A stretch of DNA of 64,000 nt, taken from Treponemataceae bacterium (GTDB taxonomy: Bacteria; Spirochaetota; Spirochaetia; Treponematales; Rectinemataceae). A program made the translations under genes and the position numbers. How positions within the stretch are numbered: the stretch's first letter is position 1; the number at the start of each line of letters is the position of its first letter. The stretch is from contig CAXXVZ010000005.1 of the NCBI GenBank assembly GCA_963678065.2, forward strand, positions 1,120,001-1,184,000, in the 5' to 3' direction. Below the pieces are notes generated by a model. That model worked only from the letters and a program-made list of their open reading frames with translations, did no database searches and was not told where the DNA came from. Below are positions 404 through 58,160 of the stretch, in pieces.

Positions 404-465
404 GCCTAACCTTAAAGTTGAGCTGCAACGCGACACGCGTTGTCAGCTCGAACTTGGCGTTAGGC
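404..465 (-). other. attC-like recombination site (62 bp)
   Basis: Minus strand GCCTAAC-GCCAA-GTTCGAGC-TGACAACGCG-TGT-CGCGTTGCA-GCTCAAC-TTTAAG-GTTAGGC: R''/5/L''...L'/6/R' layout with two extrahelical bases. Confidence 0.85.
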
Positions 466-494: not shown

Positions 495-1019
495 TCAATA
501 ATCCTTATAAATCACCTTCAGCATTTTCTTCTCTACATCAAACCAAAGCGAAACATAAGTCTCAGTGACATACGATTTCCCTGTTCCTTTCTCCTTAGCA
601 AAAAATGAGAGACTAAGCGGAAATTCAATGACTTCATGACTAAGGCCAACGATTTCATCATCAGTTGGAACAACGATATCATATAAGACTTGCCCTATAT
701 TCCCAAGAATCTTTTTCCCTGTAACAAGTCCCCAGATAGTACGTCTGCAACTATTTTCTGAATAAACATAATAGTATTCGACAACATTCTCTTCTTTTTT
801 TACATTTGGATTGTACAATTTTGTATCTCTGAATTTGACAGCGATATATGGTTCCCCGAACACCATTGGTATTTGATTAGTATCTTTAGCTCTCAATCCA
901 AAGTTCATTGGGAACTTGGGTAAATTATCAATTTCTTTGGGATTGAATTCCTGTGAATACACCACCCCCAGGGAAATTGAAATAAGTAGGACAATAAATG
1001 CTAAAAGAGTTCTTGCCAT
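495..1019 (-). CDS. Exported immunity protein for the NlpC/P60 tip
   Basis: Overlaps toxin 3' end, AT-rich, N-terminal signal peptide MARTLLAFIVLLISISLGVVYS. Confidence 0.75.
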   Translation of the reverse strand: MARTLLAFIVLLISISLGVVYSQEFNPKEIDNLPKFPMNFGLRAKDTNQIPMVFGEPYIAVKFRDTKLYNPNVKKEENVVEYYYVYSENSCRRTIWGLVTGKKILGNIGQVLYDIVVPTDDEIVGLSHEVIEFPLSLSFFAKEKGTGKSYVTETYVSLWFDVEKKMLKVIYKDY

Positions 1020-1570
1020 ATGATGTATCCTTGACTGGCTGGATTCCTATTACCGCTGAAGGGCGTATAAGTTTTATTGACTACCCCGGACTCAGCATTT
1101 GGCGCGGTCTGTCTCGGATCTTTATTGTGAATTGCTTCCCATGTCGTACCGGGAGCAGAGGCATCCACGATCTGTTTTGTTACTTCATCGCCTATCTGCC
1201 CTACGCCGTAGTTAACATGATCATTTGGCTTTTCATATGAGTAAAAATTCAAAACACCTGCATCACCTTGTCTGTTTGTATTTACATCCTTAAATTTTCC
1301 AACAAAATTCGAGTTTGCCATACCATTTGCAGTTAGGCGGTCAACGTCTGCTCCCATGGCCCTAAGTGAACCTATACCTACACCACTACAATCAGCTTTT
1401 GTTGTTGTGGTTCCCGAGCCATACTCTACGCCAACATATTCTCTAATCTTTTCCGCAAACTGCAAATTTAGGTCTGTGGGGCTTCTTAGTGAATTTGTAT
1501 CCCGATCATAGAATTCATCGCCGTACAGCTGAGCACCTTCAATCTCCCGCAACCCTGTCGGATCTGTGGA
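1001..1570 (-). pseudogene. Orphan Rhs C-terminal tip, NlpC/P60-like (papain-fold) peptidoglycan hydrolase
   Basis: Begins at TDPTGL; YVGVEYGSG...ADCSG (catalytic Cys) and DHV (His); no rhs core upstream. Confidence 0.75.
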
Positions 1571-1793
1571 CTTTACTGGATTCTCGCCCCGCTGTTTTTC
1601 TTCTCCACGAGCCACCTCCCCGGTTTCGGTTTTTTTGGTCTCAGCGAGCGAGGCATAGAGCAGATACAGCCACAGCGCCTCGGTGAAGGTCTGCAGCCAC
1701 CTCCGGAGAAACCCTTCCACTACGAGCAGTTCCACAGTCAGCTTGACGTGCTGCTGTGGCAGGAGAAGGGGCGCGCACCGCATGAAAGAGATT

Positions 1794-2795
1794 CTATCCT
1801 GGCCGACCTTCCGGGACAAGGCGGGCGAGCCTTTTGATATAGTCCCTGTCCACCTCCGCATAGATCGCCTGCTCCCTCGGGTGGTAGCGCCGATAGATCC
1901 GCTTAAGGTTCTCCGTCACGACGTGCGTGTACCGCGCCGTCGTCTCGACTCCTGCGTGACCCAAGAGTTCCTGGATCTGGCGCACGCTCACGCCGCGGCT
2001 TAAAAGATGGGTCGCGGTGGCATGCCGGACCGAGTGGGCCGACAGGGTCGGGTCGTCCATACCGAAGCGCCGCAGGAGGGTTCGGAAACGCTCACTCACA
2101 CTCGCTGGCCTCACATGGCTCCCTGTCCTCGGTCCGCAGGTCCCCGTGAATATCCAGGCCTGCGGATCATGGGCGCGGTTCCCGAGGTACAGAAGCAGCA
2201 CATCCCGCGCGACCTCCGAGATCGGCACGAGCCTGTCCTTGTCACCCTTGCCCCGCACGCGCATGATCCGGCGCTCGAAGTCCACGTCGCCCACCGTAAG
2301 GCCCGCAACTTCGCCCACACGAAGGCCAGCCGCGTACACGAGCTCGAAGAGCGCGCGATCCCGCAATCCCTGCGTCGTCGTCGTATCGAGCTCGTCAAGA
2401 AAGCGCTGCATCTCCGTTTCTGTGAACGCGCGGCGGCGTACAGACTCCGGGGGGAGCGGATCACCCAGTTGCCCGGCGGGGTTGTCGTCGATAAGCCCTG
2501 AGCGGTACAGACAGGCGTACAGAAGCCGTACCATCCCGAAGCGACTATTGACCGTCGTGTGCTTAAGCCGTTCTCCCGTCGTCTTCGACAGTCGCGCCGC
2601 GAGATCCTCGCGGTAGCCAAGGAGCTGCGCCGGCGTGACCTGACGTATATCGCCTATCGCGTGCTCTTCGGTCCAGCGGTAATACCCTATGATCGTAGCA
2701 CGCGCGTGGGCCATGTAGCACGCGCCGATCCGCCTGGCCACGAGGTCCTCGCTCACCAGGTGCAGTCCCAAAGCTTGTACGGCCTCGCCAGTCAC
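1794..2795 (-). CDS. XerD-like tyrosine recombinase, catalytic residues intact
   Basis: AGLRVGE, GKGDKDR, HSVRH, LLGH, TTARYTHV; N-terminal SAM-like domain. Confidence 0.93.
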   Translation of the reverse strand: MTGEAVQALGLHLVSEDLVARRIGACYMAHARATIIGYYRWTEEHAIGDIRQVTPAQLLGYREDLAARLSKTTGERLKHTTVNSRFGMVRLLYACLYRSGLIDDNPAGQLGDPLPPESVRRRAFTETEMQRFLDELDTTTTQGLRDRALFELVYAAGLRVGEVAGLTVGDVDFERRIMRVRGKGDKDRLVPISEVARDVLLLYLGNRAHDPQAWIFTGTCGPRTGSHVRPASVSERFRTLLRRFGMDDPTLSAHSVRHATATHLLSRGVSVRQIQELLGHAGVETTARYTHVVTENLKRIYRRYHPREQAIYAEVDRDYIKRLARLVPEGRPG

Positions 2796-3757
2796 GATCG
2801 GAACTCCCAGCTTCCGCGCGGGTGCGCCGCGTCCACCGCCGCGCGCAGGCTCTCCTTGCTCCGCCGCAGGTAGGTCTGTGTGCTGCCTAAGTTCCGAAAC
2901 CCGACCAAGATTTGCACGTGCCGAAGGTCGCAGCCTGACTCGACCAGGTGCGCCCCCAGGCTCGTCCGAAAGCCGTAGCTTGTGATCATCGGCAATCCCT
3001 CACTCGCACAGGTCTCGGCCAAAACCTCGTTGATCACCTGAGTCAGCCTCCCGTGCCCCGCGCCGAAGAGCGTGTGCGCATACCTCCGCTCGTACTCGTG
3101 AAACACAAGTTTCCGTCGCGGCAGATACTCCTTGAGCACCCCCGCCGCGTAGCTCGTCAGGAAGGCCGTCCGTCCCTGCCCCGAGCGCCCGCTCCGAACC
3201 CACACTGTCCGCTCGCGAAGATCAAGGTCAGCCGGTTCGAGCGCGGCCGCCTCACTCGCGTGCAAGCCCGCAGCGTACATGAGTTCCGCCGCCACGTGCA
3301 CCCGATAGGTCTTTACCACCTTCCACCACGGCCGCACCTCATCGAAGCGCGACAGGGCCGCAAGGAGTCTCGCCATCTCCTCGACCGTCAGCGCATTCTC
3401 CGACAGATGCTCTCCCACCCGCACCCGACGGATCTCGCGGAAGGGATTCGTCCGTATCGTCCCCGTCTTCACGAGGTAGTCGAAGAACCGCCTGGCCGCT
3501 TTCAGATGGTTGTTGATCGTCCCCGCGTTGTACGGCCGCCCTGTCGCTGCTGTCATCGTCGACAGCTTCACCTGGTAGCGCAGAGCCTCAGCAAGCCCTA
3601 CCTCCGCAACCTCGAGTTCCTCCGCTTCCAGCCATGAGCCGACGGTCCGCGCAAGCGTGCGTATCGACTCGTAACCCTGATCAGTTACCTTCGGCTGTTC
3701 TTCAGCGAGAAAGGCTTCGATCTGCGCCGAAAGCCGTACGGAGTATATGCCATCCAC
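2792..3757 (-). CDS. XerC-like tyrosine recombinase with degenerate active site (GTG start at 3757 chosen; ORF opens at 3826)
   Basis: Integrase-fold motifs but AGLHASE, SGRSG, YGFRT, LVGF; Tyr kept in TQTY. Confidence 0.88.
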   Translation of the reverse strand: MDGIYSVRLSAQIEAFLAEEQPKVTDQGYESIRTLARTVGSWLEAEELEVAEVGLAEALRYQVKLSTMTAATGRPYNAGTINNHLKAARRFFDYLVKTGTIRTNPFREIRRVRVGEHLSENALTVEEMARLLAALSRFDEVRPWWKVVKTYRVHVAAELMYAAGLHASEAAALEPADLDLRERTVWVRSGRSGQGRTAFLTSYAAGVLKEYLPRRKLVFHEYERRYAHTLFGAGHGRLTQVINEVLAETCASEGLPMITSYGFRTSLGAHLVESGCDLRHVQILVGFRNLGSTQTYLRRSKESLRAAVDAAHPRGSWEFRS

Positions 3758-3843
3758 GTTCGCCTCTCTTCCCCGCCGGAATTGCGCGACCAGATTGGTA
3801 ATTCCTTGTCGCGCCAGGGGCAACACTCGCTATCGGTAGTCAG

Positions 3844-3869: not shown

Positions 3870-4306
3870 ATTTATGCCGTTGATCCGGAGAGTCGTTCTG
3901 CCATCGCCTCAGGACTCGGAATCATCGACAGATCCACCGCCCCAATCTCCGCGTCCTCGCGAAGCCGGTAATAGGCTCGCGAGCGTTCCGAGCCCCCTCG
4001 CGCAATCGACACGTAGTCGTACTCGACGAGCTGCCGCAGACTCTGCTTGATCCATGTATGCCCCAGCCCGGTCAGCTCCCGTACCTGCCGCTGCGTGAAG
4101 CTCACCTCTTCAGCCCGTAAGTGCTGCGCTCTCGCCTCGCGGCCCACCCACGTACGCAACTCGCCGTACAGTGTGTAGCGTAATCTAGAAATACCCGAAA
4201 AGATCAAACTGGAATGGACAGAAAAATCGTCAGAATTCCCCATAAAAATCGTGGGGAGGAAGTGGCGATGAAAACCCTGTAGGATTTATCCAGCAGGGAG
4301 GAGGGA

Positions 4307-5779
4307 ATGCTCCACATGAACCAGATTGATCACGTCAAAGATTTGCAAAGGCAGGGCTATGGTCCCTGCGAGATCGCTGAACGGCTGGGAATCGATCGAA
4401 AAACAACAGCGAAGTATATGAAGCAGGAGGACTTCAACGCCTCTACCGAAGTGCCCCGCGAGCTTCCCTCGAAACTTGATCGATGGAAGCCAACCATCGA
4501 TCAATGGCTTGCCGAAGACCTGAAGATGCGTTTCAAGCAGCGCCATAGGGCCATGAGGATCCATACAAGGCTTCTGGAAGAACACCCCGACGACTACGAC
4601 TGCTCATATCCTTTGGTCCAGCGCTATGTCAAACGGCGGAAAGCGGCCAGGAAAGAAGCGGAGGGGTTTCTTGAGCTCGTCTGGTCGAAAGGCGAGGCGC
4701 AGGCCGATTTCGGAGAGGCAGAACTGATCGAGGCCGGCGTTCGAAGGACCGTCAAATACCTGACCTTGACCTTTCCCTTCAGCAATGCGGGCTTTACGCA
4801 GTGTTTCAGCGGCGAGACGGCCGAATGTGTTTCCCAGGGGCTCAAAGATATATTCAGCCACATAGGTGGCGTTCCCGCCAGGATCGTGTTCGACAACGCA
4901 ACGGGCGTAGGCAGACGGGTCCGCGACCGTGTCACCTTGAGCCAGCTTTTCCTTCGGTTCAAATGCCACTATGGCTTTGCGGTCAGCTTCTGCAACCCTG
5001 CTTCAGGCCATGAGAAAGGGAATGTCGAAAACAAGATCGGCTATGCGAGAAGGAACTTCTTCGTTCCTCTGCCGGTTGTGGACAGCCTCGAGTCTTGGAA
5101 CAAGGAATTGCTCGAAAAAGCGGCGAAAGATCATGACCGATCGCATTACAAGAAAAATCAGAATATTGCCGAGTTGTTCGAAGAGGAGCGGCAGTCTTTA
5201 GGGCTTTTGCCGGTGCGAAGCTTCATCGTCGAGCGTTTCGAGCGAGTATCCACGGATGGCTACGGAAAGTTCTGCATTGACGGAAAGCATTGGTATTCAA
5301 GCGCTCCCGAATGCGGGAACAGCGAAGTGACCGTAGGGCTCAAGGCGCATGAACTCGTCGTGTACCGCAGCGAAGGAACCCCGTTGTGTGTCCACCGAAG
5401 AGTCTATGGCGACGAGCGGAGCGACAGCTGCGATTACCGAACAAGCCTTGAAACCCTCATGAAGAAGCCTGGCGCATGGATCAATAGCGCCTTTAGGGCA
5501 GGCGTTGACGATACCATACGAGTCGCGATGGACGAACTCTCAAAGCCTGATCTGCGCAATGTGCTGAAAGTCCTGGTGAAAAGCAGTACGACCTTTGGGT
5601 TCGACGTCGCCATGACCTCGCTTGAGGAAGCGATTGCCCGAGGCCGGCTGGACAGTTTCAGCCTTAGCGCGGTTGCTTCCAGGGTCGCCTTTGATGGGCT
5701 TCACGGCATTCCCTCCGAGGGACCCGACCTCGGAGCCTACGATCGCGCCCTCATGAGCAACTCGGAGACCGTGTCATGA
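4307..5779 (+). CDS. istA: IS21 transposase IstA
   Basis: N-terminal HTH; QADFG, VFDNA, EKGNVE DDE motifs. Confidence 0.95.
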   Translation: MLHMNQIDHVKDLQRQGYGPCEIAERLGIDRKTTAKYMKQEDFNASTEVPRELPSKLDRWKPTIDQWLAEDLKMRFKQRHRAMRIHTRLLEEHPDDYDCSYPLVQRYVKRRKAARKEAEGFLELVWSKGEAQADFGEAELIEAGVRRTVKYLTLTFPFSNAGFTQCFSGETAECVSQGLKDIFSHIGGVPARIVFDNATGVGRRVRDRVTLSQLFLRFKCHYGFAVSFCNPASGHEKGNVENKIGYARRNFFVPLPVVDSLESWNKELLEKAAKDHDRSHYKKNQNIAELFEEERQSLGLLPVRSFIVERFERVSTDGYGKFCIDGKHWYSSAPECGNSEVTVGLKAHELVVYRSEGTPLCVHRRVYGDERSDSCDYRTSLETLMKKPGAWINSAFRAGVDDTIRVAMDELSKPDLRNVLKVLVKSSTTFGFDVAMTSLEEAIARGRLDSFSLSAVASRVAFDGLHGIPSEGPDLGAYDRALMSNSETVS

Positions 5780-6555
5780 GAAAAGCGCGTGTCAATCGTG
5801 CCGAACTGCGCAGCGAAATCTCCGTACTGCTGCGCAAGATGGCCTTCAGCCAGACCGCGGTAAAGATCTGCGAGGAAGAGGCCAAGGCACCCCAGGAAGA
5901 GTTTCTCCTGAAGATCCTGAAGCGAGAGATGGCTAACCGCGACGATGTCCGCAGGGCACGATTCCTTCATGAAGCGGCCTTCCCCGTCTACAAAACCTTC
6001 GAGGGCTTTGATTTCTCCTGCGTGAAGCTGCCGCCGGCGCTTTCGAAACAGGAAATGATGACCACCCAGTTCGTCGCCGAGAAGAAAAACTTGGTGCTTT
6101 ACGGCCCCGTTGGAACTGGAAAGACACATCTTGCCACAGCCCTTGGCGTCACCGCGTGCTCTCGCACCTTCCGTACCAGGTTCTTTACCGCTGCAGAGCT
6201 GGTGGTAAGGCTTTCCGAAGCCCTTAAGGAAGGCTCGCTTGAGCGGCTTGTTATGTCCATCGCTCGGGCTGATCTCTTGATCATAGACGAATGGGGCTAT
6301 GTCCCCGTCGACCGGCAAGGAGCCCAGCTCCTGTTCAGGATAATTTCCGATTCCTATGAGCGCCGAAGCGTTATTCTCACGACCAATCTTGAATTCTCCA
6401 AATGGGGGACAATCTTCACGGACGATCAGATGGCTGCCGCCATGATCGACAGGCTTGCCCACCATGGTCACATTATTCTCTTCGAAGGTGAAAGCTACCG
6501 GATGAAACACGCACTCATGCGGCAGAAAGGCCAGGCACAATTACCCACCGGCTGA
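5776..6555 (+). CDS. istB: IS21 helper ATPase IstB
   Basis: GPVGTGKT, LLIIDEWGY, TTNL, AMIDRL. Confidence 0.95.
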   Translation: MRKARVNRAELRSEISVLLRKMAFSQTAVKICEEEAKAPQEEFLLKILKREMANRDDVRRARFLHEAAFPVYKTFEGFDFSCVKLPPALSKQEMMTTQFVAEKKNLVLYGPVGTGKTHLATALGVTACSRTFRTRFFTAAELVVRLSEALKEGSLERLVMSIARADLLIIDEWGYVPVDRQGAQLLFRIISDSYERRSVILTTNLEFSKWGTIFTDDQMAAAMIDRLAHHGHIILFEGESYRMKHALMRQKGQAQLPTG

Positions 6556-8046
6556 TGGGTGTTTTTGTACGATTTTTTCGGGTATTTCGCCTTGACGAAA
6601 CACAGTACAGCCCCACCGCCCCCGCGGGTAGCTCCCGTACCGTCGAGCTCATCACCCCCTCCACCATGATCGTGTACGCTACCCGGTAGTCCTCCAGGTC
6701 GCAGCGGATGAAGCTCACTGCCCCCTCACGCTCCTCACGCTTCTGGTACTGCCTCAGAAAGCACACGCTCGCGATCAGATCCAGAAACCGGTCATGGTCG
6801 CGGCGGCTCCGCATGAGACTCGTCGGAAACCCCAGGTGCACCGCAAAGTCGTTCACGATCGCCACCTTCCGCACCAGCCGCTGCGCCGCCTGGTGCGCCC
6901 GTATGATCCGCTCCGTCTCTCCGCGCCCAGTCCGCAAGCGTTCCAGCGAATACTTCTGCCGCTGCGCCTCGTGGATCCGCGCAGTCTGGATCTTCGACTC
7001 GTCCGCGTTCACCACGAAGCACCGGCTCGCGTTCTCCGGATTCACCGCATGGCTCGTCCCCGACAGCACGCTCGACACCACCACCGGCGTCCTGACCACC
7101 CGGCTCTGCATCGTCCCCGTCTCCGGGTCCTTCATCGTCACCAGCCTCGACAGCTCCTTGCCCGACAGCATCTCCCGGATCTGGTGCTCCACCACCTCCC
7201 CGTGCACCGCTTCTCCCAGAATCAGAAACTTGTGGCTCAGGTCCTCGATGTAGTTCAGTGCCTGGTCCGACAGGCTCGTCACCGCCACCACCTCCTCGGG
7301 CGGCATAAGCTTCCGCACCGTCTCCACGAGATAGCTCTTTCCCGCCGCGGACTGCGACAGAATCAAGACCGAGATCGGATCGTCCAGCTTCCGGCTCGAC
7401 GCGCACAGGTACAGAAGCTGCTTATTCAGGTCCTCTCCCACGTAGCCCAACGCGCTGAGATCCTCCACGATCCGCTCAAACAGGCGCGGGTCGCGCAACA
7501 GCGACAGCCCCAGCTCGCGGTCGGCCGCGCTCATCGGGACGCCCGCCTTCGTATTTCCCCGCCGCAGGGCCTCGTCGCGCTCGCACTCGAGATTCTCAAG
7601 GATCAGCACGAGGTCCTTCTGTGCCCGCGCGAGCTCCCACCCGAAGCTCCGCGCCACCGCCTGCGCAAAGCCGCCCCTCGCCTTCGCCGCGTACAGGTCC
7701 ACCGTGTCGTAGTAGCTCATCATCCCTGCACTCGCCCGGATCGCCACCTTCAGGCTCGTCACAAACAGCTGCCTGACCCCGCCTATGCGGTACGTCATCG
7801 CCCCCACACGGAACACATGGAACAGCCCATCCCGCTCGACGTGCAGCTCCGGTCCATCCGTCTCGTCCATGAAGCCGGCCGCTTCGCCCGGTCTCGCCTC
7901 CTCCTCTGCTGCCCCTGCCGGGGGCGACTCCGGGGGAACTGCGTCACCTTCGGTGACGACCTTCCCCGCGGAGTTGGGGGGAAGAAACGCGGCCCCAGGA
8001 AGGGACTCATCAGCGACCGCGAGTACCCGCTCGCTCTGGTCTCCCC

Positions 8047-8331
8047 TCATACCGCACCACGCCGCCCGGAGCGCCGCTCCCGGTCAAAGCTCTTCTTCGC
8101 CTCGTGCACATAGCTGTTCACCTGCCCATACGCCGAGCGAAAGGCGTGCAGGTTCACCACCGCCCGCTTCCCCCAAAACTCACCCTGCGCCCGCCCAAGC
8201 CCCTCTCCCCGGAAGCTCATTCGACAGGCCAGCGATTCCGACACCGGAATGCAGCTCACCTCCTCCAGCGTACACCCTGCCATGATCAGATACGCCGCTT
8301 CGTACAGATCCGTTACCTCCGCAGTTTCCAT
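8047..8331 (-). CDS. Small protein (94 aa, DUF5659-like), possible directionality/DNA-binding factor
   Basis: AAGGAGG RBS before METAEVTDLYEAAYL; stop overlaps ATPase start; present in both units. Confidence 0.7.
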   Translation of the reverse strand: METAEVTDLYEAAYLIMAGCTLEEVSCIPVSESLACRMSFRGEGLGRAQGEFWGKRAVVNLHAFRSAYGQVNSYVHEAKKSFDRERRSGRRGAV

Positions 8332-8479
8332 CCCCCGCCTCCTTTTTGCGGGCAATCTCGTCATCTCCCTGTCCTGTATGCTATCCTGTCTTCGCGTCAT
8401 GACGAGGTTCCCTCGTTGTGTCCTCGCCCGTTTCCCCGAAGCATCCACCACGACCTCAGGGGAAACGGGCTCCTTTGTA

Positions 8480-8569
8480 CCTGACATAAAACCATGTCAA
8501 GTACTATTATTGGTTTTGAGTATTATACATCATGTATTATATCGTCAAGCGGTAGGGTATACTTTTTCT
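8480..8569. promoter_or_regulatory. Divergent promoter/operator region
   Basis: AT-rich; palindromes TGACAT-N6-ATGTCA and ATACAT-C-ATGTAT; TATACT 6 nt before XRE ATG; TTGACG...TATAAT on minus strand. Confidence 0.55.
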
Positions 8570-8977
8570 ATGCCACAGCGACCGAAATATATTCTGCCGG
8601 ATATCTCCGAATCCTCTCACAATGTCGGTCAAAATATTGCCGCACTGCGCAAAAAAAAAGGACTCAGCCAAAAAGAACTGGCTCTGAAAATCGGCATCAC
8701 CCAGGCCTTGCTTTCACACTATGAAACCGCCCGTCTGAGTATTCCCGTCGAGGTTGTCATTCAGATTTCCATTTCGTTGAACGTACACGCGGATGTGATA
8801 TTGGGAATCGGAGCATCGGCACCGCTCGACGATGACTCGCCAAGCCGCAGAATTGTGCAGCGGGCGAAACTGATCGAGCGTCTTCCCGCCTTCGACCAGA
8901 AAGCCCTGCTCAAAACCATCGACAATGCGTTGAAAGGCGCCGGCATCACAACGGAAGATCCAAAAGTCTCTCACTGA
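8570..8977 (+). CDS. XRE-family HTH transcriptional regulator
   Basis: IAALRKKKGLSQKELALKIGITQALLSHYE. Confidence 0.92.
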   Translation: MPQRPKYILPDISESSHNVGQNIAALRKKKGLSQKELALKIGITQALLSHYETARLSIPVEVVIQISISLNVHADVILGIGASAPLDDDSPSRRIVQRAKLIERLPAFDQKALLKTIDNALKGAGITTEDPKVSH

Positions 8978-9007: not shown

Positions 9008-9381
9008 GGCACCATCAAACACAGTCTCCCGACTGCGCCTAATTCTCGGTTGGCGGGTCGCGCCGCCTCACGCTGCGCGTGGAGTGGCGCTCCCCCAAAT
9101 CCGCTTTCGCGGACTTCGCCAACCTACGCATTAGCCACAATCGGGTCTGCCACTCCTTTCGGCTCGATACACGAAATTCACAAGTATGGAGTCACGCATT
9201 CGGATATTTGTCTTCCCATAGCCAAGGGGCTGCGCGTCGAAGACGCGATGCCACGCGGCAGTTCTTCAGCTTGCCATTCACGCCTTGAAACAGGCTCGCA
9301 GCCGAACTCGGATCTTTTCTTGCCTCGGATACACAAAGGCCGCCTCAGCATACACTGAAGCGGCCTTTGTCTTTTTTTCTT
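9008..9381. repeat. Conserved structured non-coding region, copy B (includes 100-bp GCCTAAT...ATTAGCC hairpin 9037-9136 and terminator 9333-9378)
   Basis: Four related copies in the window with stem-preserving substitutions. Confidence 0.85.
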
Positions 9382-9444
9382 GCCTAACCTTCCGCTTAAA
9401 CGGCGAGGGCTTTTGGCCCGAGTCCGGTTGAAGCCGCGTTAGGC
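9382..9444 (-). other. attC-like site (63 bp, slightly degenerate)
   Basis: Minus strand GCCTAAC-GCGG-CTTCAACC...GTTTAAG-CGGAAG-GTTAGGC; immunity stop codon TAA lies inside R''. Confidence 0.75.
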
Positions 9445-9708
9445 TTTGGGGTCAGGCCCCAAGGGGGCTTCTTTACGAAAAATGCTCAAATCCGACTTCA
9501 TTTGCCTAAGGAGAAAACTGCATGCCTCAGCCTCTGAGGAGAATTGCTTAATGTCTTTTTTTTGCCCTCGTTCAAAGAAGTATATCTCCCAACATCCACC
9601 TTCCTCGATTAGGCATGTTCGATCTTCGCGAAATAGCTTGTTGAATGAATACCACGAACTCGGTACATTCAGTTGGTTCAATTCTCGTTCGAGCTCTTTT
9701 ATATTCAT
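9439..9708 (-). CDS. Immunity protein for the TNT tip
   Basis: ATGA overlap with toxin stop; 89 aa; WEIYFFERG...FSSEAEAC. Confidence 0.75.
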   Translation of the reverse strand: MNIKELERELNQLNVPSSWYSFNKLFREDRTCLIEEGGCWEIYFFERGQKKDIKQFSSEAEACSFLLRQMKSDLSIFRKEAPLGPDPKA

Positions 9709-10331
9709 TTCAACACCTCGACCAATTTAGCATCGATAAGGCTTCCCAAAGTGCTACGGAACATGTATTGAATACCACCACCGGCACTTCCATAATATGG
9801 CCCGGCAATACCAGCTTTTACTTCTAGATCGATCTTCGATCTATATGCAGTGTATTCACCAGAGTTCCATGGGGGTAATGCTCTTTCTTCTTTTGGAGTC
9901 CCTATCGGAGAAGCATATGAACCACGTGGATTCCCATATCTATCAAACGTCGAACCTGCGGGTAGGGTTGTTTCCCATGAAGCGCCAAACAGAAAGCCAT
10001 CAAACAAAGGATAGCAGACGTCTTCGACCAATGCTGGCGGTGGCGGCAATATCCCGGCTGTATTTAGCCCACCATATAGCCCAGTTACAACTGCAACAGC
10101 GGCGGTGGCAATATTATTAGTTGCACTAGTTACTACGTTTTTAGCAAGCTTCGCAGCCGATTCAAGCGAATTTATTATATTGCTAACAACATTTTCAGCA
10201 TCCGGCGGATCGCTCGAAGGAACAATATTCCCGGTACCAAGTCCTGATATTAGGCTGCTATCGGACGTCTCGCCCGTTGATTCGAACCGTTTCAGATCCC
10301 CCATCCCTGCCAACCCCGTGGGATCCGTGAA
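9705..10331 (-). pseudogene. Orphan Rhs tip, TNT (DUF4237) NAD+ glycohydrolase domain
   Basis: Begins FTDPTGL; LPAGSTFDRYG...YASP.GTP.EERALPP...GGGIQY. Confidence 0.88.
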
Positions 10332-10554: not shown

Positions 10555-11556
10555 CTATCCTGGCCGACCTTCCGGGACAAGGCGGGCGAGCCTTTTGATA
10601 TAGTCCCTGTCCACCTCCGCATAGATCGCCTGCTCCCTCGGGTGGTAGCGCCGATAGATCCGCTTAAGGTTCTCCGTCACGACGTGCGTGTACCGCGCCG
10701 TCGTCTCGACTCCTGCGTGACCCAAGAGTTCCTGGATCTGGCGCACGCTCACGCCGCGGCTTAAAAGATGGGTCGCGGTGGCATGCCGGACCGAGTGGGC
10801 CGACAGGGTCGGGTCGTCCATACCGAAGCGCCGCAGGAGGGTTCGGAAACGCTCACTCACACTCGCTGGCCTCACATGGCTCCCTGTCCTCGGTCCGCAG
10901 GTCCCCGTGAATATCCAGGCCTGCGGATCATGGGCGCGGTTCCCGAGGTACAGAAGCAGCACATCCCGCGCGACCTCCGAGATCGGCACGAGCCTGTCCT
11001 TGTCACCCTTGCCCCGCACGCGCATGATCCGGCGCTCGAAGTCCACGTCGCCCACCGTAAGGCCCGCAACTTCGCCCACACGAAGGCCAGCCGCGTACAC
11101 GAGCTCGAAGAGCGCGCGATCCCGCAATCCCTGCGTCGTCGTCGTATCGAGCTCGTCAAGAAAGCGCTGCATCTCCGTTTCTGTGAACGCGCGGCGGCGT
11201 ACAGACTCCGGGGGGAGCGGATCACCCAGTTGCCCGGCGGGGTTGTCGTCGATAAGCCCTGAGCGGTACAGACAGGCGTACAGAAGCCGTACCATCCCGA
11301 AGCGACTATTGACCGTCGTGTGCTTAAGCCGTTCTCCCGTCGTCTTCGACAGTCGCGCCGCGAGATCCTCGCGGTAGCCAAGGAGCTGCGCCGGCGTGAC
11401 CTGACGTATATCGCCTATCGCGTGCTCTTCGGTCCAGCGGTAATACCCTATGATCGTAGCACGCGCGTGGGCCATGTAGCACGCGCCGATCCGCCTGGCC
11501 ACGAGGTCCTCGCTCACCAGGTGCAGTCCCAAAGCTTGTACGGCCTCGCCAGTCAC
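10555..11556 (-). CDS. XerD-like tyrosine recombinase, intact
   Basis: Same protein sequence as 1794-2795. Confidence 0.93.
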   Translation of the reverse strand: MTGEAVQALGLHLVSEDLVARRIGACYMAHARATIIGYYRWTEEHAIGDIRQVTPAQLLGYREDLAARLSKTTGERLKHTTVNSRFGMVRLLYACLYRSGLIDDNPAGQLGDPLPPESVRRRAFTETEMQRFLDELDTTTTQGLRDRALFELVYAAGLRVGEVAGLTVGDVDFERRIMRVRGKGDKDRLVPISEVARDVLLLYLGNRAHDPQAWIFTGTCGPRTGSHVRPASVSERFRTLLRRFGMDDPTLSAHSVRHATATHLLSRGVSVRQIQELLGHAGVETTARYTHVVTENLKRIYRRYHPREQAIYAEVDRDYIKRLARLVPEGRPG

Positions 11557-12518
11557 GATCGGAACTCCCAGCTTCCGCGCGGGTGCGCCGCGTCCACCGC
11601 CGCGCGCAGGCTCTCCTTGCTCCGCCGCAGGTAGGTCTGTGTGCTGCCTAAGTTCCGAAACCCGACCAAGATTTGCACGTGCCGAAGGTCGCAGCCTGAC
11701 TCGACCAGGTGCGCCCCCAGGCTCGTCCGAAAGCCGTAGCTCGTGATCATCGGCAATCCCTCACTCGCACAGGTCTCGGCCAAAACCTCGTTGATCACCT
11801 GAGTCAGCCTCCCGTGCCCCGCGCCGAAGAGCGTGTGCGCGTACCCCCGCTCGTAGCCCCTGAACACAACCTCACGCCGGCAGAGATACTCCTTGAGCAC
11901 CCCCGCCGCGTAGCTCGTCAGGAATGCCGTCCGCCCCTGCCCCGAGCGCCCGCTCCGAACCCACACCGTCCGCTCGCGAAGATCAAGGTCAGCCGGTTCG
12001 AGCGCAGCCGCCTCACTCGCGTGCAAGCCCGCAGCGTACATGAGTTCCGCCGCCACGTGCACCCGATAGGTCTTTACCACCTTCCACCACGGCCGCACCT
12101 CATCGAAGCGCGACAGGGCCGCAAGGAGTCTCGCCATCTCCTCGACCGTCAGCGCATTCTCCGACAGATGCTCTCCCACCCGCACCCGACGGATCTCGCG
12201 GAAGGGATTCGTCCGTATCGTCCCCGTCTTCACGAGGTAGTCGAAGAACCGCCTGGCCGCTTTCAGATGGTTGTTGATCGTCCCCGCGTTGTACGGCCGC
12301 CCTGTCGCTGCTGTCATCGTCGACAGCTTCACCTGGTAGCGCAGAGCCTCAGCAAGCCCTACCTCCGCAACCTCGAGTTCCTCCGCTTCCAGCCATGAGC
12401 CGACGGTCCGCGCAAGCGTGCGTATCGACTCGTAACCCTGATCAGTTACCTTCGGCTGTTCTTCAGCGAGAAAGGCTTCGATCTGCGCCGAAAGCCGTAC
12501 GGAGTATATGCCATCCAC
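11553..12518 (-). CDS. XerC-like recombinase with degenerate active site (ORF opens at 12587)
   Basis: Same substitutions as 2792-3757. Confidence 0.88.
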   Translation of the reverse strand: MDGIYSVRLSAQIEAFLAEEQPKVTDQGYESIRTLARTVGSWLEAEELEVAEVGLAEALRYQVKLSTMTAATGRPYNAGTINNHLKAARRFFDYLVKTGTIRTNPFREIRRVRVGEHLSENALTVEEMARLLAALSRFDEVRPWWKVVKTYRVHVAAELMYAAGLHASEAAALEPADLDLRERTVWVRSGRSGQGRTAFLTSYAAGVLKEYLCRREVVFRGYERGYAHTLFGAGHGRLTQVINEVLAETCASEGLPMITSYGFRTSLGAHLVESGCDLRHVQILVGFRNLGSTQTYLRRSKESLRAAVDAAHPRGSWEFRS

Positions 12519-12632
12519 GTTCGCCTCTCTTCCCCGCCGGAATTGCGCGACCAGATTGGTAATTCCTTGTCGCGCCAGGGGCAACACTCGCTATCGGTAG
12601 TCAGTGCCCAGTTCTGCCCAGACTGACCAGAT

Positions 12633-14372
12633 TTATGCCGTTGATCCGGAGAGTCGTTCTGCCATCGCCTCAGGACTCGGAATCATCGACAGATCCACCG
12701 CCCCAATCTCCGCGTCCTCGCGAAGCCGGTAATAGGCTCGCGAGCGTTCCGAGCCCCCTCGCGCAATCGACACGTAGTCGTACTCGACGAGCTGCCGCAG
12801 ACTCTGCTTGATCCATGTATGCCCCAGCCCGGTCAGCTCCCGTACCTGCCGCTGCGTGAAGCTCACCTCTTCAGCCCGTAAGTGCTGCGCTCTCGCCTCA
12901 CGGCCCACCCAGGTCCGAAGCTCGCCATACAGCCCCACCGCCCCCGCGGGTAGCTCCCGCACCGTGCTCGCAAGCACCCCCTCCACCATGATCGTGTACG
13001 CGATCCGGTAGTCCTCCAGGTCGCAGCGGATGAAGCTCACTGCCCCCTCACGCTCCTCGTGCTTCTGGTACTGCCTCAGAAAGCACACGCTCGCGATCAG
13101 GTCCAGAAACCGGTCGTGGTCCCGCCGGCTCCGCATGAGACTCGTCGGAAACCCCAGGTGCACCGCAAAGTCGTTCACGATCGCCACCTTCCGCACCAGC
13201 CGCTGCGCCGCCTGGTGCGCCCGTATGATCCGCTCCGTCTCTCCGCGGCCTGCCCGCAAGCGTTCCAGCGAATACTTCTGCCGCTGCGCCTCGTGGATCC
13301 GCGCAGTCTGACCTCTCGACTCGTCCGCGTTCACCACAAAGCACCGACTCGCGTTCTCCGGATTCACCGCGTGGCTCGTTCCCGACAGCACGCTCGACAC
13401 CACCACCGGCGTCCTGACCACCCGGCTCTGCATCGTCCCCGTCTCCGGGTCCTTCATCGTCACCAGCCTCGACAGCTCCTTGCCCGACAGCATCTCCCGG
13501 ATCTGGTGCTCCACCACCTCCCCGTGCACCGCTTCTCCCAGAATCAGAAACTTGTGGCTCAGGTCCTCGATGTAGTTCAGTGCCTGGTCCGACAGGCTCG
13601 TCACCGCCACCACCTCCTCGGGCGGCATAAGCTTCCGCACCGTCTCCACGAGATAGCTCTTTCCCGCCGCGGACTGCGACAGAATCAAGACCGAGATCGG
13701 ATCGTCCAGCTTCCGGCTCGACGCGCACAGGTACAGAAGCTGCTTATTCAGGTCCTCTCCCACGTAGCCCAACGCGCTGAGATCCTCCACGATCCGCTCA
13801 AACAGGCGCGGGTCGCGCAACAGCGACAGCCCCAGCTCGCGGTCGGCCGCGCTCATCGGGACGCCCGCCTTCGTATTTCCCCGCCGCAGGGCCTCGTCGC
13901 GCTCGCACTCGAGATTCTCAAGGATCAGCACGAGGTCCTTCTGTGCCCGCGCGAGCTCCCACCCGAAGCTCCGCGCCACCGCCTGCGCAAAGCCGCCCCT
14001 CGCCTTCGCCGCGTACAGGTCCACCGTGTCGTAGTAGCTCATCATCCCTGCACTCGCCCGGATCGCCACCTTCAGGCTCGTCACAAACAGCTGCCTGACC
14101 CCGCCTATGCGGTACGTCATCGCCCCCACACGGAACACATGGAACAGCCCATCCCGCTCGACGTGCAGCTCCGGTCCATCCGTCTCGTCCATGAAGCCGG
14201 CCGCTTCGCCCGGTCTCGGCTCCTCCTCTTTTGCCCCTGCCGGGGGCGACTCCGGGGGAACGTCGTCACCTTCGGTGACTGCGTTCCCCGCGGAGTGGGG
14301 GGGAAGAAACGCGGCCCCAGGAAGGGACTCATCAGCGACCGCGAGTACCCGCTCGCTCTGGTCTCCCCTCAT
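12633..14372 (-). CDS. AAA+/helicase-like ATPase with C-terminal winged HTH
   Basis: Walker A variant SQSAAGKS, LILGE, ENASR; resembles the C-terminal part of primase-annotated proteins found beside paired Xer genes; start uncertain. Confidence 0.78.
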   Translation of the reverse strand: MRGDQSERVLAVADESLPGAAFLPPHSAGNAVTEGDDVPPESPPAGAKEEEPRPGEAAGFMDETDGPELHVERDGLFHVFRVGAMTYRIGGVRQLFVTSLKVAIRASAGMMSYYDTVDLYAAKARGGFAQAVARSFGWELARAQKDLVLILENLECERDEALRRGNTKAGVPMSAADRELGLSLLRDPRLFERIVEDLSALGYVGEDLNKQLLYLCASSRKLDDPISVLILSQSAAGKSYLVETVRKLMPPEEVVAVTSLSDQALNYIEDLSHKFLILGEAVHGEVVEHQIREMLSGKELSRLVTMKDPETGTMQSRVVRTPVVVSSVLSGTSHAVNPENASRCFVVNADESRGQTARIHEAQRQKYSLERLRAGRGETERIIRAHQAAQRLVRKVAIVNDFAVHLGFPTSLMRSRRDHDRFLDLIASVCFLRQYQKHEEREGAVSFIRCDLEDYRIAYTIMVEGVLASTVRELPAGAVGLYGELRTWVGREARAQHLRAEEVSFTQRQVRELTGLGHTWIKQSLRQLVEYDYVSIARGGSERSRAYYRLREDAEIGAVDLSMIPSPEAMAERLSGSTA

Positions 14373-14653
14373 ACCGCACCACGCCGCCCGGAGCGCCGCT
14401 CCCGGTCAAAGCTCTTCTTCGCCTCATGCACATAGCTGTTCACCTGCCCATACGCCGAGCGAAACGCACTCAGGTTCACCACCGCCCGCTTCCCCCAAAA
14501 CTCACCCTGCGCCCGTCCAAGCCCCTCTCCCCGGAAGCTCATTCGACAGGCCAGCGATTCCGACACCGGAATGCACCGCACCTCCTCCAGCGTACACCCT
14601 GCCATGATCAGATACGCCGCTTCGTACAGATCCGTTACCTCCGCAGTTTCCAT
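14369..14653 (-). CDS. Small protein (DUF5659-like)
   Basis: Paralog of 8047-8331. Confidence 0.7.
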   Translation of the reverse strand: METAEVTDLYEAAYLIMAGCTLEEVRCIPVSESLACRMSFRGEGLGRAQGEFWGKRAVVNLSAFRSAYGQVNSYVHEAKKSFDRERRSGRRGAV

Positions 14654-14891
14654 CCCCCGCCTCCTTTTTGCGGGGAATCTCGTCATCGTCCTGTCCTGTA
14701 TGCTATCCTGTCTTTGCGTCATGACGAGGTTCCCTCGTTGTGTCCTCGCCCGTTTCCCCGAAGCATCCACCACGACCTCAGGGGAAACGGGCTCCTTTGT
14801 ACCTGACATACAACCATGTCAAGTACTATTATTGGTTTTGAGTATTATACATCATGTATTATATCGTCAAGCGGTAGGATATACTTTTTCT

Positions 14892-15329: not shown

Positions 15330-15590
15330 GGCACCATCAAACACAGTCGCCCGACTGCGCCTAATTCTCGGTTGGCGGGGAGCGCCGTCCCAAGCCGTGC
15401 TTGGGAGAGCGCTCCCCCAAATCCGCTTTCGCGGACTTCGCCAACCTACGCATTAGACGCTATCGGGTCTGCCTTCCCCTTCGGCTCAATACTCGAAATT
15501 CACAAGTATGGAGTCAAGCATGCGGATGGTTGTCTTCCCATAGCCAAGGGGCTGCGCGACTACTGTCGCGATGCCCCGCGGCAGCTCTTC
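15330..15590. repeat. Conserved structured non-coding region, copy C (100-bp hairpin 15359-15458; no terminator or attC)
   Basis: Aligns to 9008-9267. Confidence 0.85.
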
Positions 15591-32382: not shown

Positions 32383-35300
32383 ATGAACAAGCCCGCGAGG
32401 AAGAAGCTGAGAGCCTGCATCGTGCTCGCCTGCGCTGCCATGGGCGCATGGGCGCAGACACGGGCGCCGGAAGCGGCGACTGCCGGAGGCGCGTACCGGA
32501 TCGAGCGGGGAACGGACGGGACGGACTCGTACACGCCGCTCGTGAAGGGACGACACACGTTCAGCTTCGGCTCGGGGGCGGGACACATCGAGTTCGATTC
32601 GGACGCGGTGGACCTGTCGGTGGCGACGGTCAGGCAGGCAGGGAAGTCGGGGAAGTCCGTGGCGGCGAGCAGTTTTGCGAAGACGGGGCAGGGACTGGGG
32701 AACCGAGGACTGGCGATGACGGTGAGGCAGGTAGGAGGACCGGCGGCAGGGCGGAACGGACAGATCGACGGGATGGGGATCACGGGTCCGGTGTGGGAGT
32801 TTGGGCCTGAGAAGCTGCGGTTCACGAAGCCTGCGAGGCTGACGCTGCCGTACAGCTGTCCAGAGGGGATGCCGGAGAGCCAGATCCAGGTGTTCTGGTA
32901 CAATGAAAGCGTGAAGCGGTGGGAAGTTGTGCCGAAGCTGAGCCAGGACATGGTTACGCACACCATTACGGCGACTATAGACCACTTCAGCAGCTATACG
33001 ACGGGTATATCGTCGAACCGAAAGGATGAAGCGGGAACGCTTGCGGGACTCGGAGGATCGAGGAGTGAGCGGGTGGACCCGTACTTCGGGACGCTCCTCA
33101 TGGACAGCACAGAGGTGGACATCGCCGCCCGAGGGATCGGCTTCGGCCTTCAATCGAGTTTCAACTCGGATTATTTGTACTCGCAGTATGTGTCGACGCT
33201 CAGCGGAAGTTTCACGAGTTCGGGCAACCTCTGTGTGAGCCCGAATAACAGCTCATACATATATGCATCTGGGTGGAGTTACCTTCTCCCGTTCTGCAAC
33301 TATGGAACCTATGGTGTGCTGACCCTGACCGTTCCCGGCGGGTCGGTGTTCGACCTCACATCTGTATTGAACCAGTTCGGGACGATGACCGCGAACGCGG
33401 AAACGACGATCGACCGTTATGTGGTCACCAAATCGGGAACGACGCTGACGGTGCGCATCCCCGAGACAGGGTTCTCGGGCCGGTTCACGATCTTCGAACA
33501 TGCGTGGTCGGATAGATCGTATCCGCCGGGAGACGATCCAGTTATCACCTATTATTACGAGGTCAAGGCGACCTCTGCGCGGCTCTTCTATCCGGACGGA
33601 CGAGAGGCAGAGTTCACGGGATCGGGGTATGTGTCGAAGATCTGGGATCCGTCCCTGGTGAACGGCGTCACGTTCAGCTACTCGGGGACGACGCTGACGC
33701 AGCTTGACCACACGGATGGTCGGTCGGTGAAGATCTATTCGTATGCGGGATCAAGCGGGCAGACACGAATAGTGTATATCCTGTCGTCGAGCACGGGAAG
33801 GACGACGCTGAATCCGGGGGATCTGTTCCTGCAGCGGAAGACACTCGACTCGTCAGGTAGAGTGATTTCAATCGACGAACTGGGAACGGTGCCGATCACA
33901 CAGACCATCACATCGTTCACGCCGAGCCTGTCGAACGAGTCGACGTACAGCACGGTGCTGCGCTCGACAACATATGGATACTCTGTAGGATTAGGCGGGG
34001 TTGACTATATTGAGATGCAATCGCCGGGGAAAGGGTACTCGAAATATACGTTCGGTGTGTCGTTCCATCCGTATGGGTATTGCACCTATTCCAATCTGTA
34101 CACCTACAACGATAATGATCCTCCTGGGGAGCCACATTGGATCACGGTCGGGGCAAACTACCGCTATTATCAAAATAAACCCAAGGTGTGCACTGTTATA
34201 CGGAAAGAACAGTCCGGTTCGACAGAGTATGCAAAGGATTATTATACCTACGAATCCGGAGGCGGAAAGACGGCATTCACGTCATCAGACTGGGAGAGTT
34301 CAACCACGACATGGCCTGATCCATGGGATATCTACCCATCGAAGACGACGATCGCGACAGTCCGTGTGGCCGGGAGTGAGACGGCACTCGTCAAAAAAGA
34401 ACTATTTTTTTCCCATACAGGGGATCTCCCAAATAAGACATATTTGGGCGTGGGAACGGATATCACGTACAAGAACTCAAGTGACTTCTATACGAAAACA
34501 GGGCGCTCATTCACCCCGACTTCCTCGTTACTTGGGAGCTATCGCACGCAGTACGAATATGTCTACATCGGGGATTCCGGTACATCGCGGTACACGCTGA
34601 CGCATTCGTACGACAGCGATGGGCGGCGGACGCGGACGCAGAACAGCCTTGCGGGAAGTACATACACGGCCTACCTCAATACGCTTACGTCTGACACCAC
34701 CTTCTGGGACAATCCGTACACATCGACGAACAACTTCACGGACAACCTGGTGAAAGGCTTCGGGATCATAGCGGGAGAGGCGGTCGAGCAGGCTTCAGGA
34801 TCGTGCTTCAAGACATACCGGAAATACCAATCAGACCTGAAGCTGCTCGAGACGAAAGATCTTGAATACTATGCGAACGGGACGGCCAACACCAAGACGG
34901 TGACGAGTGCGTGGAACAGCTCGACGAATACGCTTGCGAGCGTGACGGAGCCCTGGGGGGACTCAAGTACGACGACGACCTCGTTCAGCTACGGGAGCGG
35001 GTGGAAGAGCTCGTTCGTGACGACACAGACGAAGGAGCTGGGGGCGAACATCGGAACGAATGATCGTGTCGTCACCACGTATGATTATGACCTTGCGGGA
35101 CGACGGCTGCAGGAAGGGACGGTCGTCACGGATTCACAGGGGACCGCAATCGACGGGACGAAGTATCCCGCAGCGACGAGTAAGCTCGAGTGTGATGGAC
35201 TGGGACGAGTGACGAAGAAGTCACGGGTGGTGAGCGGGACAGAGACGACACTCGGGCGGTACGAGTATGGGCAGGACACGAATGGACTGTGGTCGACGGC

Positions 35301-38001: not shown

Positions 38002-38002
38002 T

Positions 38003-38470
38003 ATGAACTTGAGAATTTTGAAAGGTACTAATCGGTCACCTGCTATTGGCGACTGCTTCACTATGATGCCGCCTGATGGTCAGTTTTTATTTGGCCGGGT
38101 TATTGAAATAGATGCCAACCCACTCGGATTAGGTGGTGGTATTCTAATCTACATTTACAATGGGCGATCCGAATCAAAACAAGTGCTACCAGATATGACG
38201 GTAAGCAATCTTTTGTTGCCTCCGATTATCACCAATAAGCAGCCTTGGATAAAAGGCTATTTTGAATTCTTGGGAAACGTTTCTTTAGGCCCTAAAGACA
38301 GGCTCGCTGTTCATTGTTTCAAAGATTCCCGCGGGTGGTATTTTAATGAGAGAGGAACCCGTTTGCAGGTTAAAACTGAACCAGTTGGAGAATGGGGGCT
38401 ACATAGTTATCGCACGATTGATGACGCTATATCAAATGCCCTTGGTATTCCACAGTCGCAAGAAAAATGA
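38003..38470 (+). CDS. Immunity protein (Imm26-like)
   Basis: Directly after toxin; IGDCF...DGQFLFGRVI, W..GYFEFLG. Confidence 0.8.
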   Translation: MNLRILKGTNRSPAIGDCFTMMPPDGQFLFGRVIEIDANPLGLGGGILIYIYNGRSESKQVLPDMTVSNLLLPPIITNKQPWIKGYFEFLGNVSLGPKDRLAVHCFKDSRGWYFNERGTRLQVKTEPVGEWGLHSYRTIDDAISNALGIPQSQEK

Positions 38471-38530
38471 GCCTAATGTATAGTTCAAGCTGACAACCCT
38501 ACGGGTTGCAGCTTAACTAGGTTATTAGGC
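38471..38530 (+). other. attC-like site (60 bp) with AAT/ATT core variant
   Basis: GCCTAAT-GTATA-GTTCAAGC-TGACAACCC-TAC-GGGTTGCA-GCTTAAC-TAGGTT-ATTAGGC, directly after the stop codon. Confidence 0.82.
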
Positions 38531-38559: not shown

Positions 38560-38899
38560 TGTGCTGGGACGGCTTTTGTGCATCCGAGGCAAGAAAAAAT
38601 CCGAGTTATGCTGCGAGCCTGTTTCAGGGCGCGAATGGCAAAAAGAGCTGCCGCGGAGCATCGCGTCTTCGACGCGCAGCCCCGTGGCTAGGGGAAGACA
38701 CCCATCTGAATGCTTGACTCCATGCTTATGAATTTCGAGTATCGAGCCGAAGGGGAAGGCAGACCCGATTGCGCCTAATGCGTAGGGTGGCGAAGTCCGC
38801 GGAAGCGGATTTGGGGGAGCGCCACTCCACGCGCAGCGTGAGGTGGCACGACCCGCCAACCGAGAATTAGGCGCAGTCGGGCGACTGTGTTTGATGGTG
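38560..38899. repeat. Conserved structured non-coding region, copy D (inverted; 100-bp hairpin 38773-38872)
   Basis: Reverse complement aligns with 9010-9350. Confidence 0.85.
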
Positions 38900-38993: not shown

Positions 38994-39251
38994 CTATTTA
39001 TACGCGTCTTTGCGATCACGAACTCGAATTATTTCAATAACCAAACGCCGATCGACGATGTTGTAGACGACACAATACTCGCCGACAATGCGGTAGGTGT
39101 TTTCGGTATCAGTGAGCTTTCGGACGCCATTGGGACGCGGCTCCGAGGCCAAGCTTTCCACGGCGAGGATGATCTTCGAGATGATCGGCTTGGGAAGCTT
39201 TTTGAGCTTCCTGGCGGCCGACGACTTCCACTCGATGTTATACGAGGCCAC
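38994..39251 (-). CDS. RelE/ParE-family toxin, possibly degenerate
   Basis: YNIEWKSSAARKLKKL...PRPNGVRKL...YRIVGEYCVVY. Confidence 0.8.
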   Translation of the reverse strand: MASYNIEWKSSAARKLKKLPKPIISKIILAVESLASEPRPNGVRKLTDTENTYRIVGEYCVVYNIVDRRLVIEIIRVRDRKDAYK

Positions 39252-39435: not shown

Positions 39436-39507
39436 ATTGCCCTCCTATAAAACATCAATCCTACGATTGACTCCAGATCAATAGTTTTTGGCTCGGCAAT
39501 GCCGAGA

Positions 39508-55850: not shown

Positions 55851-55879
55851 ATTCAGGTAAATCTCCTTGCGATACAGGC

Positions 55880-58160
<2,281 letters not shown>

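Follow-up and report, generated by a model that had tools for sequence, protein, structure and literature searches.

An attC-type hairpin at the edge of mobile units that carry Rhs toxin tips in a spirochaete

What does a hairpin with the architecture of an integron attC site do behind a toxin-immunity pair, which stretch of DNA does it delimit, and which enzyme could recombine it? These questions are raised by positions 404-465 of the window, the whole 64,000-nucleotide stretch analysed here (C5:1120001-1184000). A preliminary description had seen there a textbook attC hairpin in the orientation of the immunity gene, and had proposed that tip and immunity genes are loaded onto a backbone as gene cassettes. 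The site and its neighbours are as follows.

404 to 465, minus strand: attC site A1, recognised by geometry, fold, strict scan and covariance model
465 to 459, 453 to 446, 423 to 417 and 410 to 404, minus strand: boxes R'', L'', L' and R' of A1
450 and 443, minus strand: extra bases of A1, the extra C and the second one
between 410 and 409, minus strand: expected crossover G|TT of A1
495 to 1019, minus strand: putative immunity gene 1 (174 aa, 36% GC), its role assigned by position
329 to 399, no strand assigned: block D4, a terminator-like hairpin with a T run on the plus strand (z -7)
141 to 279, no strand assigned: block D3, with copies at 9130, 15452, about 38630 and C5:1118407

On the minus strand, A1 reads R'' GCCTAAC, a 5-nt spacer, L'' GTT[C]GAGC, 22 nt, L' GCTCAAC, a 6-nt spacer and R' GTTAGGC. 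This is the attC pattern R''(RYYYAAC)-5-L''...L'-5/6-R'(GTTRRRY), and the geometry, extra C and orientation described earlier hold. The R box pairs completely. Unpaired are the C at site position 16 and the A at position 23, the arrangement of G16/T23 on the bottom strand of attCaadA7 (PMC5027507, accessible part). Together with these extrahelical bases (16 and 23/24), the site has the unpaired central spacer and the short terminal structure of attC. Its folding z-scores were -5.9/-6.6, and none of 200 shuffles was equally stable.

A strict scan for the 5/6 geometry returned two sites in the 5.27-Mb genome, A1 and 38471-38530, and one site in one shuffled genome. A covariance model trained on 15 array sites only (eight class 1/2 and seven host-array attC) placed A1 at the top of 11 window matches (34.0 bits, E 8.5e-7), with 34 bits on the minus strand versus 13.6 on the plus strand. 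The next two matches were 38471-38530 (29.0 bits) and 9382-9444 (21.9 bits), and all three lie on the same strand as their immunity gene. Furthermore, the L box and inner stem of A1 match spirochaete integron array sites. Judged by these sequence features, 404-465 is a genuine integron-type attC, and the earlier textbook label stands.

Two other functions were rejected: that of a plain terminator, as bulges and spacer are conserved and a separate terminator-like hairpin adjoins, and that of an RNA motif, as the 12 element sites compared below showed zero one-sided G-U changes. Rfam found only a tRNA in the window. The adjoining hairpin, in D4, is absent from the list of a simple terminator scan. 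D4 matches 9308-9378 (71 nt at 99% identity) and also holds the edge of a decayed, opposite-facing attC homologue. D3 at 141-279 starts at an ATTAG core, here without the hairpin B listed below. Immunity gene 1 had no family match, and its stop codon lies 29 nt before R'' of A1. With dnaA at 54300-55901 of the window, the bottom strand of A1 would be on the leading-strand template if the origin is at dnaA; this is the low-excision orientation noted for chromosomal integrons (PMC8946536, accessible part).

Further hairpins in the window are these.

9382 to 9444, minus strand: attC site A2, decayed (21.9 bits)
38471 to 38530, plus strand: attC site A3, directly after the Imm26 stop (29.0 bits)
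9037 to 9136, plus strand: hairpin B, with attC 5/6 geometry in the direction of the HTH gene
15359 to 15458, plus strand: second copy of hairpin B
38773 to 38872, minus strand: third copy of hairpin B

In A2, the spacer between R'' and L'' has 4 nt, one L position is mismatched, z is -1.4/-1.8, and R'' contains the immunity stop codon. The A2 type is intact in two related loci (L061 and L096). An intact form is also indicated in a groundwater run, by variant letters and a loose end in two contigs, and at the intact A2-type site of this groundwater population different sequence is joined at R'', not R'. The core of A3 is a compensated AAT/ATT. Hairpin B has an ATT core and an L without extra base, and backbone similarity beyond its third copy ends at 38899. 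Among 401 phylum genomes, the A1/A3-type pattern was found in its own genome only, and viral contigs gave no match.

The genes around these sites are listed next.

40444 to 40517, minus strand: tRNA gene, 42 nt of it duplicated at C5:1117930
1001 to 1582, minus strand: orphan Rhs tip 1 of no known family, starting at the NPxxxxDPxG remnant 1582-1553
1794 to 2795, minus strand: Int2, XerC/D-like tyrosine recombinase (copy 10555-11556)
2792 to 3826, minus strand: Int1, XerC/D-like (copy 11553-12587)
4172 to 6604, plus strand: IS21 element interrupting the ATPase gene of the first-listed unit (pieces 3872-4171 and 6606-8050)
8047 to 8487, minus strand: conserved 146-aa ORF (copy 14369-14809)
8570 to 8977, plus strand: XRE-type HTH regulator, start estimated (copy ends 15299)
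9439 to 10310, minus strand: orphan tip 2 (TNT-family domain) with putative immunity
9439 to 9708, minus strand: putative immunity gene 2 (89 aa)
12633 to 14372, minus strand: P-loop ATPase of the PF27228 family, intact, 579 aa
15663 to 21805, minus strand: full-length Rhs1 (AHH nuclease tip) with Imm11
32383 to 38470, plus strand: full-length Rhs2 with Imm26 (37991-38470)

The 42-nt tRNA duplication bounds a 42.5-kb island containing the Rhs genes, the units, A1-A3 and hairpin B. Downstream of Rhs1-Imm11 lie two tandem units, 97-99% identical, in the order HTH, 146-aa ORF, PF27228 P-loop protein, Int1, Int2, Rhs remnant (30 nt), tip, immunity, attC and hairpin-rich spacer. The family lead for the 146-aa ORF, DUF5659, is weak. 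Relatives of the ATPase have longer frames, and Toprim occurs in some clusters of the family, so that PF27228 and these clusters would point to a helicase or primase role; the ATPase profile had no match among PDB sequences, weak matches only in PHROG and no relative in viral contigs. Immunity 2 had no homologue in 300 other genomes. Three of the five immunity genes in the island are followed by attC and two are not; after Imm11, there is neither attC nor D4. Three of the five pairs have a Pfam toxin or immunity family typical of Rhs C-terminal displacement systems.

The fifth pair, an Amidase_6 tip with a 136-aa partner, is an orphan left of the window (L001 17860-19500), has neither backbone nor attC, and lies next to a partial D3 copy. 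The two inverted full-length Rhs genes (16259-38001) flank a type II secretion/pilus cluster (GspD/E/F/G, A24 peptidase), possibly a dedicated export route, and their cores are near-identical over about 2.7 kb and diverged over about 1.5 kb. Between the truncated third boundary and the tRNA, at 38994-40359, lie a ParE-family ORF and an IS110 transposase fragment.

Does A1 close a small gene cassette? Tip, immunity gene and attC would then make up a standard integron cassette that the backbone receives from cassette pools. Immunity stop codons in or abutting R'' (A2, A3 and L016), the low GC of the cargo and the resumption of identity at R' are in line with this. However, a gene cassette is expected to begin with a core complementary to its own R''. 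The tips of both units join the backbone at the Rhs NPxxxxDPxG microhomology, a junction shared with L027, L037 and L038, and neither 300-nt tip junction contains a GTTRRRY/ATTRRRY core; at tip 1, identity to the other unit stops at 1550. The 7-mer complementary to R'' of A1 first recurs 8,923 nt upstream, in site A2 of the previous unit. Of 13 sites examined, A1, L016, L024, L036 and L096 have the matching 7-mer at a distance of 8.0-9.0 kb upstream, and A3 has one 4.5 kb away, inside Rhs2; for seven, none occurs within the available sequence. Tip plus immunity thus amounts to no more than half a cassette, and it is the whole unit that would formally qualify as one. Moreover, the Rhs gene before A3 is full-length, at 1,872 aa, none of the R-box comparisons points to hybrid boxes, and many sites face the other way. 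Host arrays have no Rhs core either, as a genome-wide tblastn gave only the two full Rhs genes. Loading from cassette pools is largely refuted and, in our judgement, very improbable.

The best reading of the sequence is that A1 edges a whole mobile unit of 6-9 kb. Co-oriented att sites with matching cores bound a whole unit from 9382 to 404 and in L016, L024, L036 and L096, while the first unit, after Imm11, is without such a pair. The 404 and 9382 loci pass from unrelated to 99% identical within about 10 nt containing G|TT, and identity resumes at AAG-GTTAGGC, as reported before, and spans about 80 bp. Inside, A1 belongs to the A3/L016 type, yet the block attached at its R' is 99% identical to the one downstream of A2. 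This mismatch of interior and flank is the best sign of one crossover, probably at G|TT. The contigs of four sequencing runs, which lose rare forms, contain no joint at G|TT.

The first unit probably did not enter at an A-type site, because no TTAGGC+D4 start follows Imm11; flanking variants point to hairpin B or D3 as its entry instead. Both window units start with ATTAG-CCACAA, whereas ATTAG-ACGCTA stands in the resident copy and in the one left of the window, a sorting expected from unit insertion at the B core. In L024, identity between units begins at the first base of the hairpin. In L027, the tip is duplicated from the DPxG motif onward, and no hairpin was detected.

Such tip duplication also suits a passive role of the hairpins, captured once from integron arrays and persisting as insulators between convergent genes, while homologous recombination, or illegitimate recombination helped by homology, exchanges tips and units. 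Relics would look much like this: decay has affected many copies (A2, the homologue at the edge of D4), no site follows Imm11 or the amidase pair, and hairpin interiors vary across the whole intergenic region. However, the breakpoint between A1 and A2 falls within about 10 nt, which is short of the length requirement for RecA-type exchange, and A1 has a separate terminator-like hairpin beside it. Across divergent lineages, furthermore, both bulges and the unpaired spacer are kept and covariation is two-sided only (see below), and we regard passive carriage as improbable.

How general is the arrangement? Genome searches for the backbone gave 8 of 301 genomes at order level and 18 of 401 at phylum level, counting the host's own, and locus searches gave 31 + 79 loci; named records are mostly Spirochaetota. 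A locus search with a single Int2 sequence gave no matches. Sites resembling attC recur after tip/immunity pairs in these related elements, bearing out an expectation of the preliminary description. Under relaxed rules, attC-like hairpins occur in 15 of 23 hand-picked complete cargo intervals versus 4 of 460 shuffles, leaving 8 of 23 without a full site. Hairpins with both R and L boxes numbered 23 in 154,654 bp of cargo flank (19 of 64 intervals), none in 322,872 bp of backbone and one in 463,962 bp of shuffled sequence. L boxes with the position-16 extra base occur 30 times in 1.17 Mb of element loci and not at all in one shuffle, and all 30 also have the position-23 base. By script labels, seven of them face the immunity direction and 23 the HTH direction, the latter including A3 because its locus is inverted. 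Convergent site pairs are present in L016, L061, L093 and L096, with remains of one in L120. At L096 1-260, three closely spaced attC-like hairpins stand in tandem without ORFs between them.

A second hairpin family lacks the L bulge and keeps the 5/6 geometry. In 20 further loci, model R1 found no sites. A heuristic picked out ATT hairpins lacking the bulge in L181, L183 and L184, and its four weaker matches (L178, L180 twice, L184) were regarded as chance. In 10 loci of a distant one-recombinase clade, neither model R1 nor the heuristic found attC-like sites. Small toxin-antitoxin-like pairs occur in L016, L024, L038, L055, L066 and L096 (Gp49/HTH and BrnT confirmed by Pfam), often between hairpin and HTH gene or behind Int2.

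Across 12 element sites, changes were two-sided in 16 of 20 pairs and one-sided in none, a count inflated by kinship and by the choice of the 12; covariation is in Watson-Crick pairs only, and 92.9% of cells pair, a value reached by 0 of 500 shuffles. In the scan's best register, the cores of the R box were GTT in 5, ATT in 6, CTT in 6, TTT in 11 and other in 2 cases, where CTT/TTT calls depend on register and several rows are close kin; CTT/TTT cores recur across several loci. We further compared 20 element sites with 56 array sites, six host matches without AA/TT ends having been dropped. Element sites are shorter (median 64 nt versus 114-123 nt) and have an ATT core in 8 of 20 cases versus 0 of 56; host-array sites have medians of 118-123 nt and are almost all GTT. 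Of the 20 element sites, 15 have an R box that pairs throughout, a count that takes in tandem copies and close kin and was favoured by discovery through paired R boxes, versus 5 of 56 array sites. Complete pairing would be expected if every R'' goes together with the beginning of the unit to which it belongs.

Which enzyme could act on such sites? No IntI is encoded in the window, where the two recombinases reach 88 and 50 bits against TIGR02249, below its cut-off of 265. The earlier statement that IntI is absent thus stands for the window and not for the genome, since IntI lies on another contig (C3:97196-98137, 450.6 bits) with its own array of long GTT sites. In a complete integron, intI, attI and Pc stand beside the sites; no intI adjoins A1-A3. 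IntI is present in four of five other genomes with such sites and absent from one, and two of five genomes chosen without an EHB-type site also have it, so the association between IntI and the sites is weak.

In Int2, the catalytic residues are intact. Int1 of the window (2792-3826 and 11553-12587) has its catalytic R/K/H/H replaced in an open frame, and both catalytic His are lost, again in open frames, in 17 of 32 other homologue clusters; a subclade with a partner predicted to be catalytically dead thus exists beside intact Int2. A quick Int1 tree groups the window with L060. Int1 is catalytically intact in 66 of 69 rows from loci, and universal one-strand catalysis was rejected on that count.

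The pair encoded by the unit could use the folded single-stranded hairpins as its att sites, so that IntI is not needed; the ATPase would supply single strands or replicative resolution, and the sites would have drifted to private cores (ATT, CTT, TTT) and to forms without extra base. Speaking for Int1/Int2 are the private cores, the hairpins without bulge and the confinement to two-recombinase elements, together with the ATTAG-flank sorting, the start of identity at the hairpin in L024 and the loss of Int1 His, which fits one-strand exchange. However, neither Int1 nor Int2 has the IntI insertion, yet both extra bases are conserved, about a third of the complete intervals lack a full site, and dead Int1 does not track with site type. 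Self-sufficient action of this pair at A1 is the main rival reading, although we consider it unlikely. Likewise doubtful is the broader claim that Rhs-tip elements of Spirochaetota recombine attC-type hairpins with private cores by their own XerC/D-like pair and without IntI.

The conserved extra bases, which are read by IntI (PMC5027507 and PMC7439510, accessible parts), argue instead for IntI in trans. Our leading, still tentative reading is that integron-derived sites became fixed at the unit boundary and serve the host IntI as the 3' point of exchange or excision. An attC descended from spirochaete integrons would have become a fixed boundary part of a tandemly arrayed mobile unit. A new tip and immunity pair would form its 5' joint through the NPxxxxDPxG microhomology and its 3' joint at the att hairpin. 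The folded bottom strands would most likely be bound in trans by integron integrase, and exchange of attC with attC between like-cored sites could excise, duplicate or re-join whole units, while sites with an ATT or CTT core would be barred from crossing with the GTT attI of the host. That recombination occurs, by which enzyme, and that the core insulates are all points that we infer. According to the accessible part of PMC5027507, the AAC triplet matters as micro-homology and not per se, and extra bases are dispensable for the recombination of some attC sites, which leaves room for IntI to act between like cores; large recombination losses followed changes of the triplet in the accessible part of PMC7439510. 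Against host IntI, no recombination product or circle was seen in contigs at A1, site lengths and cores are unlike those of the host array, and full sites are missing from the intervals counted above. The joint at R'' in the groundwater population, the absent TTAGGC+D4 start of the first unit and the weak association with IntI weigh on the same side.

With integron attC, including isolated attC, the element sites share the R/L boxes, the 5/6 spacer, the G16/T23 bases and the strand asymmetry, as well as a stop codon in or beside R'' and an IntI elsewhere in the genome. Unlike integron attC, they stand in no cassette array and close a 6-9 kb recombinase-bearing unit; their R boxes are self-complementary, with ATT/CTT cores, and they face either way, sometimes with two of them converging on a terminator-like hairpin between them. 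For attC sites that stand alone, with no integrase nearby, the terms CALIN and SALIN are used, a CALIN being a cluster of at least two attC in the same orientation and without intI; A1 and A2 share their orientation and lie 9 kb apart. Paired tyrosine recombinases also recall CTXphi, with its XerC/D-dependent integration, folded single-stranded site and catalysis by one partner, and Tn554, a two-recombinase element; here, unlike in these, the recombinases are element-encoded, the hairpin is of attC type and the cargo is an Rhs tip.

The island has the layout of a displacement array, with a variable tip that starts at DPxG and an immunity gene next to it. In Rhs C-terminal displacement, tips likewise join at DPxG and orphan pairs lie downstream of a full Rhs gene (PMC5361080 and PMC3482391, accessible parts). 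Unlike in those arrays, each orphan here sits on a recombinase/ATPase backbone with an att-type 3' boundary. For Vibrio effector-immunity pairs, no evidence existed for integrase-driven insertion (PMC5361080, accessible part). According to the accessible part of PMC3482391, XerC/D genes lie beside polyimmunity loci; integrons go unmentioned there. The likeness to rAID arrays drawn earlier survives as a resemblance and not as membership. In rAID-1 of Bacteroidales, one 5' XerD-family recombinase, required to be more than 44% identical to that of B. fragilis 9343, stands beside low-GC conflict genes: orphan immunity genes in a row, all facing one way, with integron-like sequences between them (bioRxiv 10.1101/471110, accessible part). 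Here, mostly in Spirochaetota, two recombinases, an ATPase and an HTH gene repeat with every toxin-immunity pair, and no run of co-oriented low-GC orphan immunity genes follows a single recombinase. The literature searched, with few subscription journals covered, contained no description of attC or integrons at Rhs or polymorphic-toxin loci, nor of this backbone. Mobile Rhs-tip units whose boundaries include integron-type sites thus appear to be new, whereas attC and the joining of tips at DPxG were already known.

In Rhs and effector-immunity arrays, the 3' joint of new tips is usually ascribed to illegitimate recombination; these elements would offer a defined and assayable site at that joint. 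As natural attC variants with compensated ATT/CTT cores, they could also test in nature the claim that AAC acts as micro-homology. If the element's own recombinases act, attC-type single-strand recombination would not be confined to IntI, and the element would be an integron-like machine for shuffling toxins and a living link between Xer and integron chemistry.

Host arrays contain further recombinase-bearing DNA. A 2.6-kb unit (XerD-like recombinase and 631-aa ORF) occurs three times on the IntI contig, at G000:C3:2358870-2361491, 851758-854370 and 864303-866929. Each copy begins with G|TTGCAC, preceded either by an attC or by a match to the sequence immediately behind intI, and ends in its own hairpin before GTT, as another giant cassette. 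Judging by translation, two similar ORFs (G000:C3:118675-120139 and C5:773391-774858) resemble group II intron reverse transcriptases; both adjoin attC sites with altered left arms, as is the case for attC-targeting introns.
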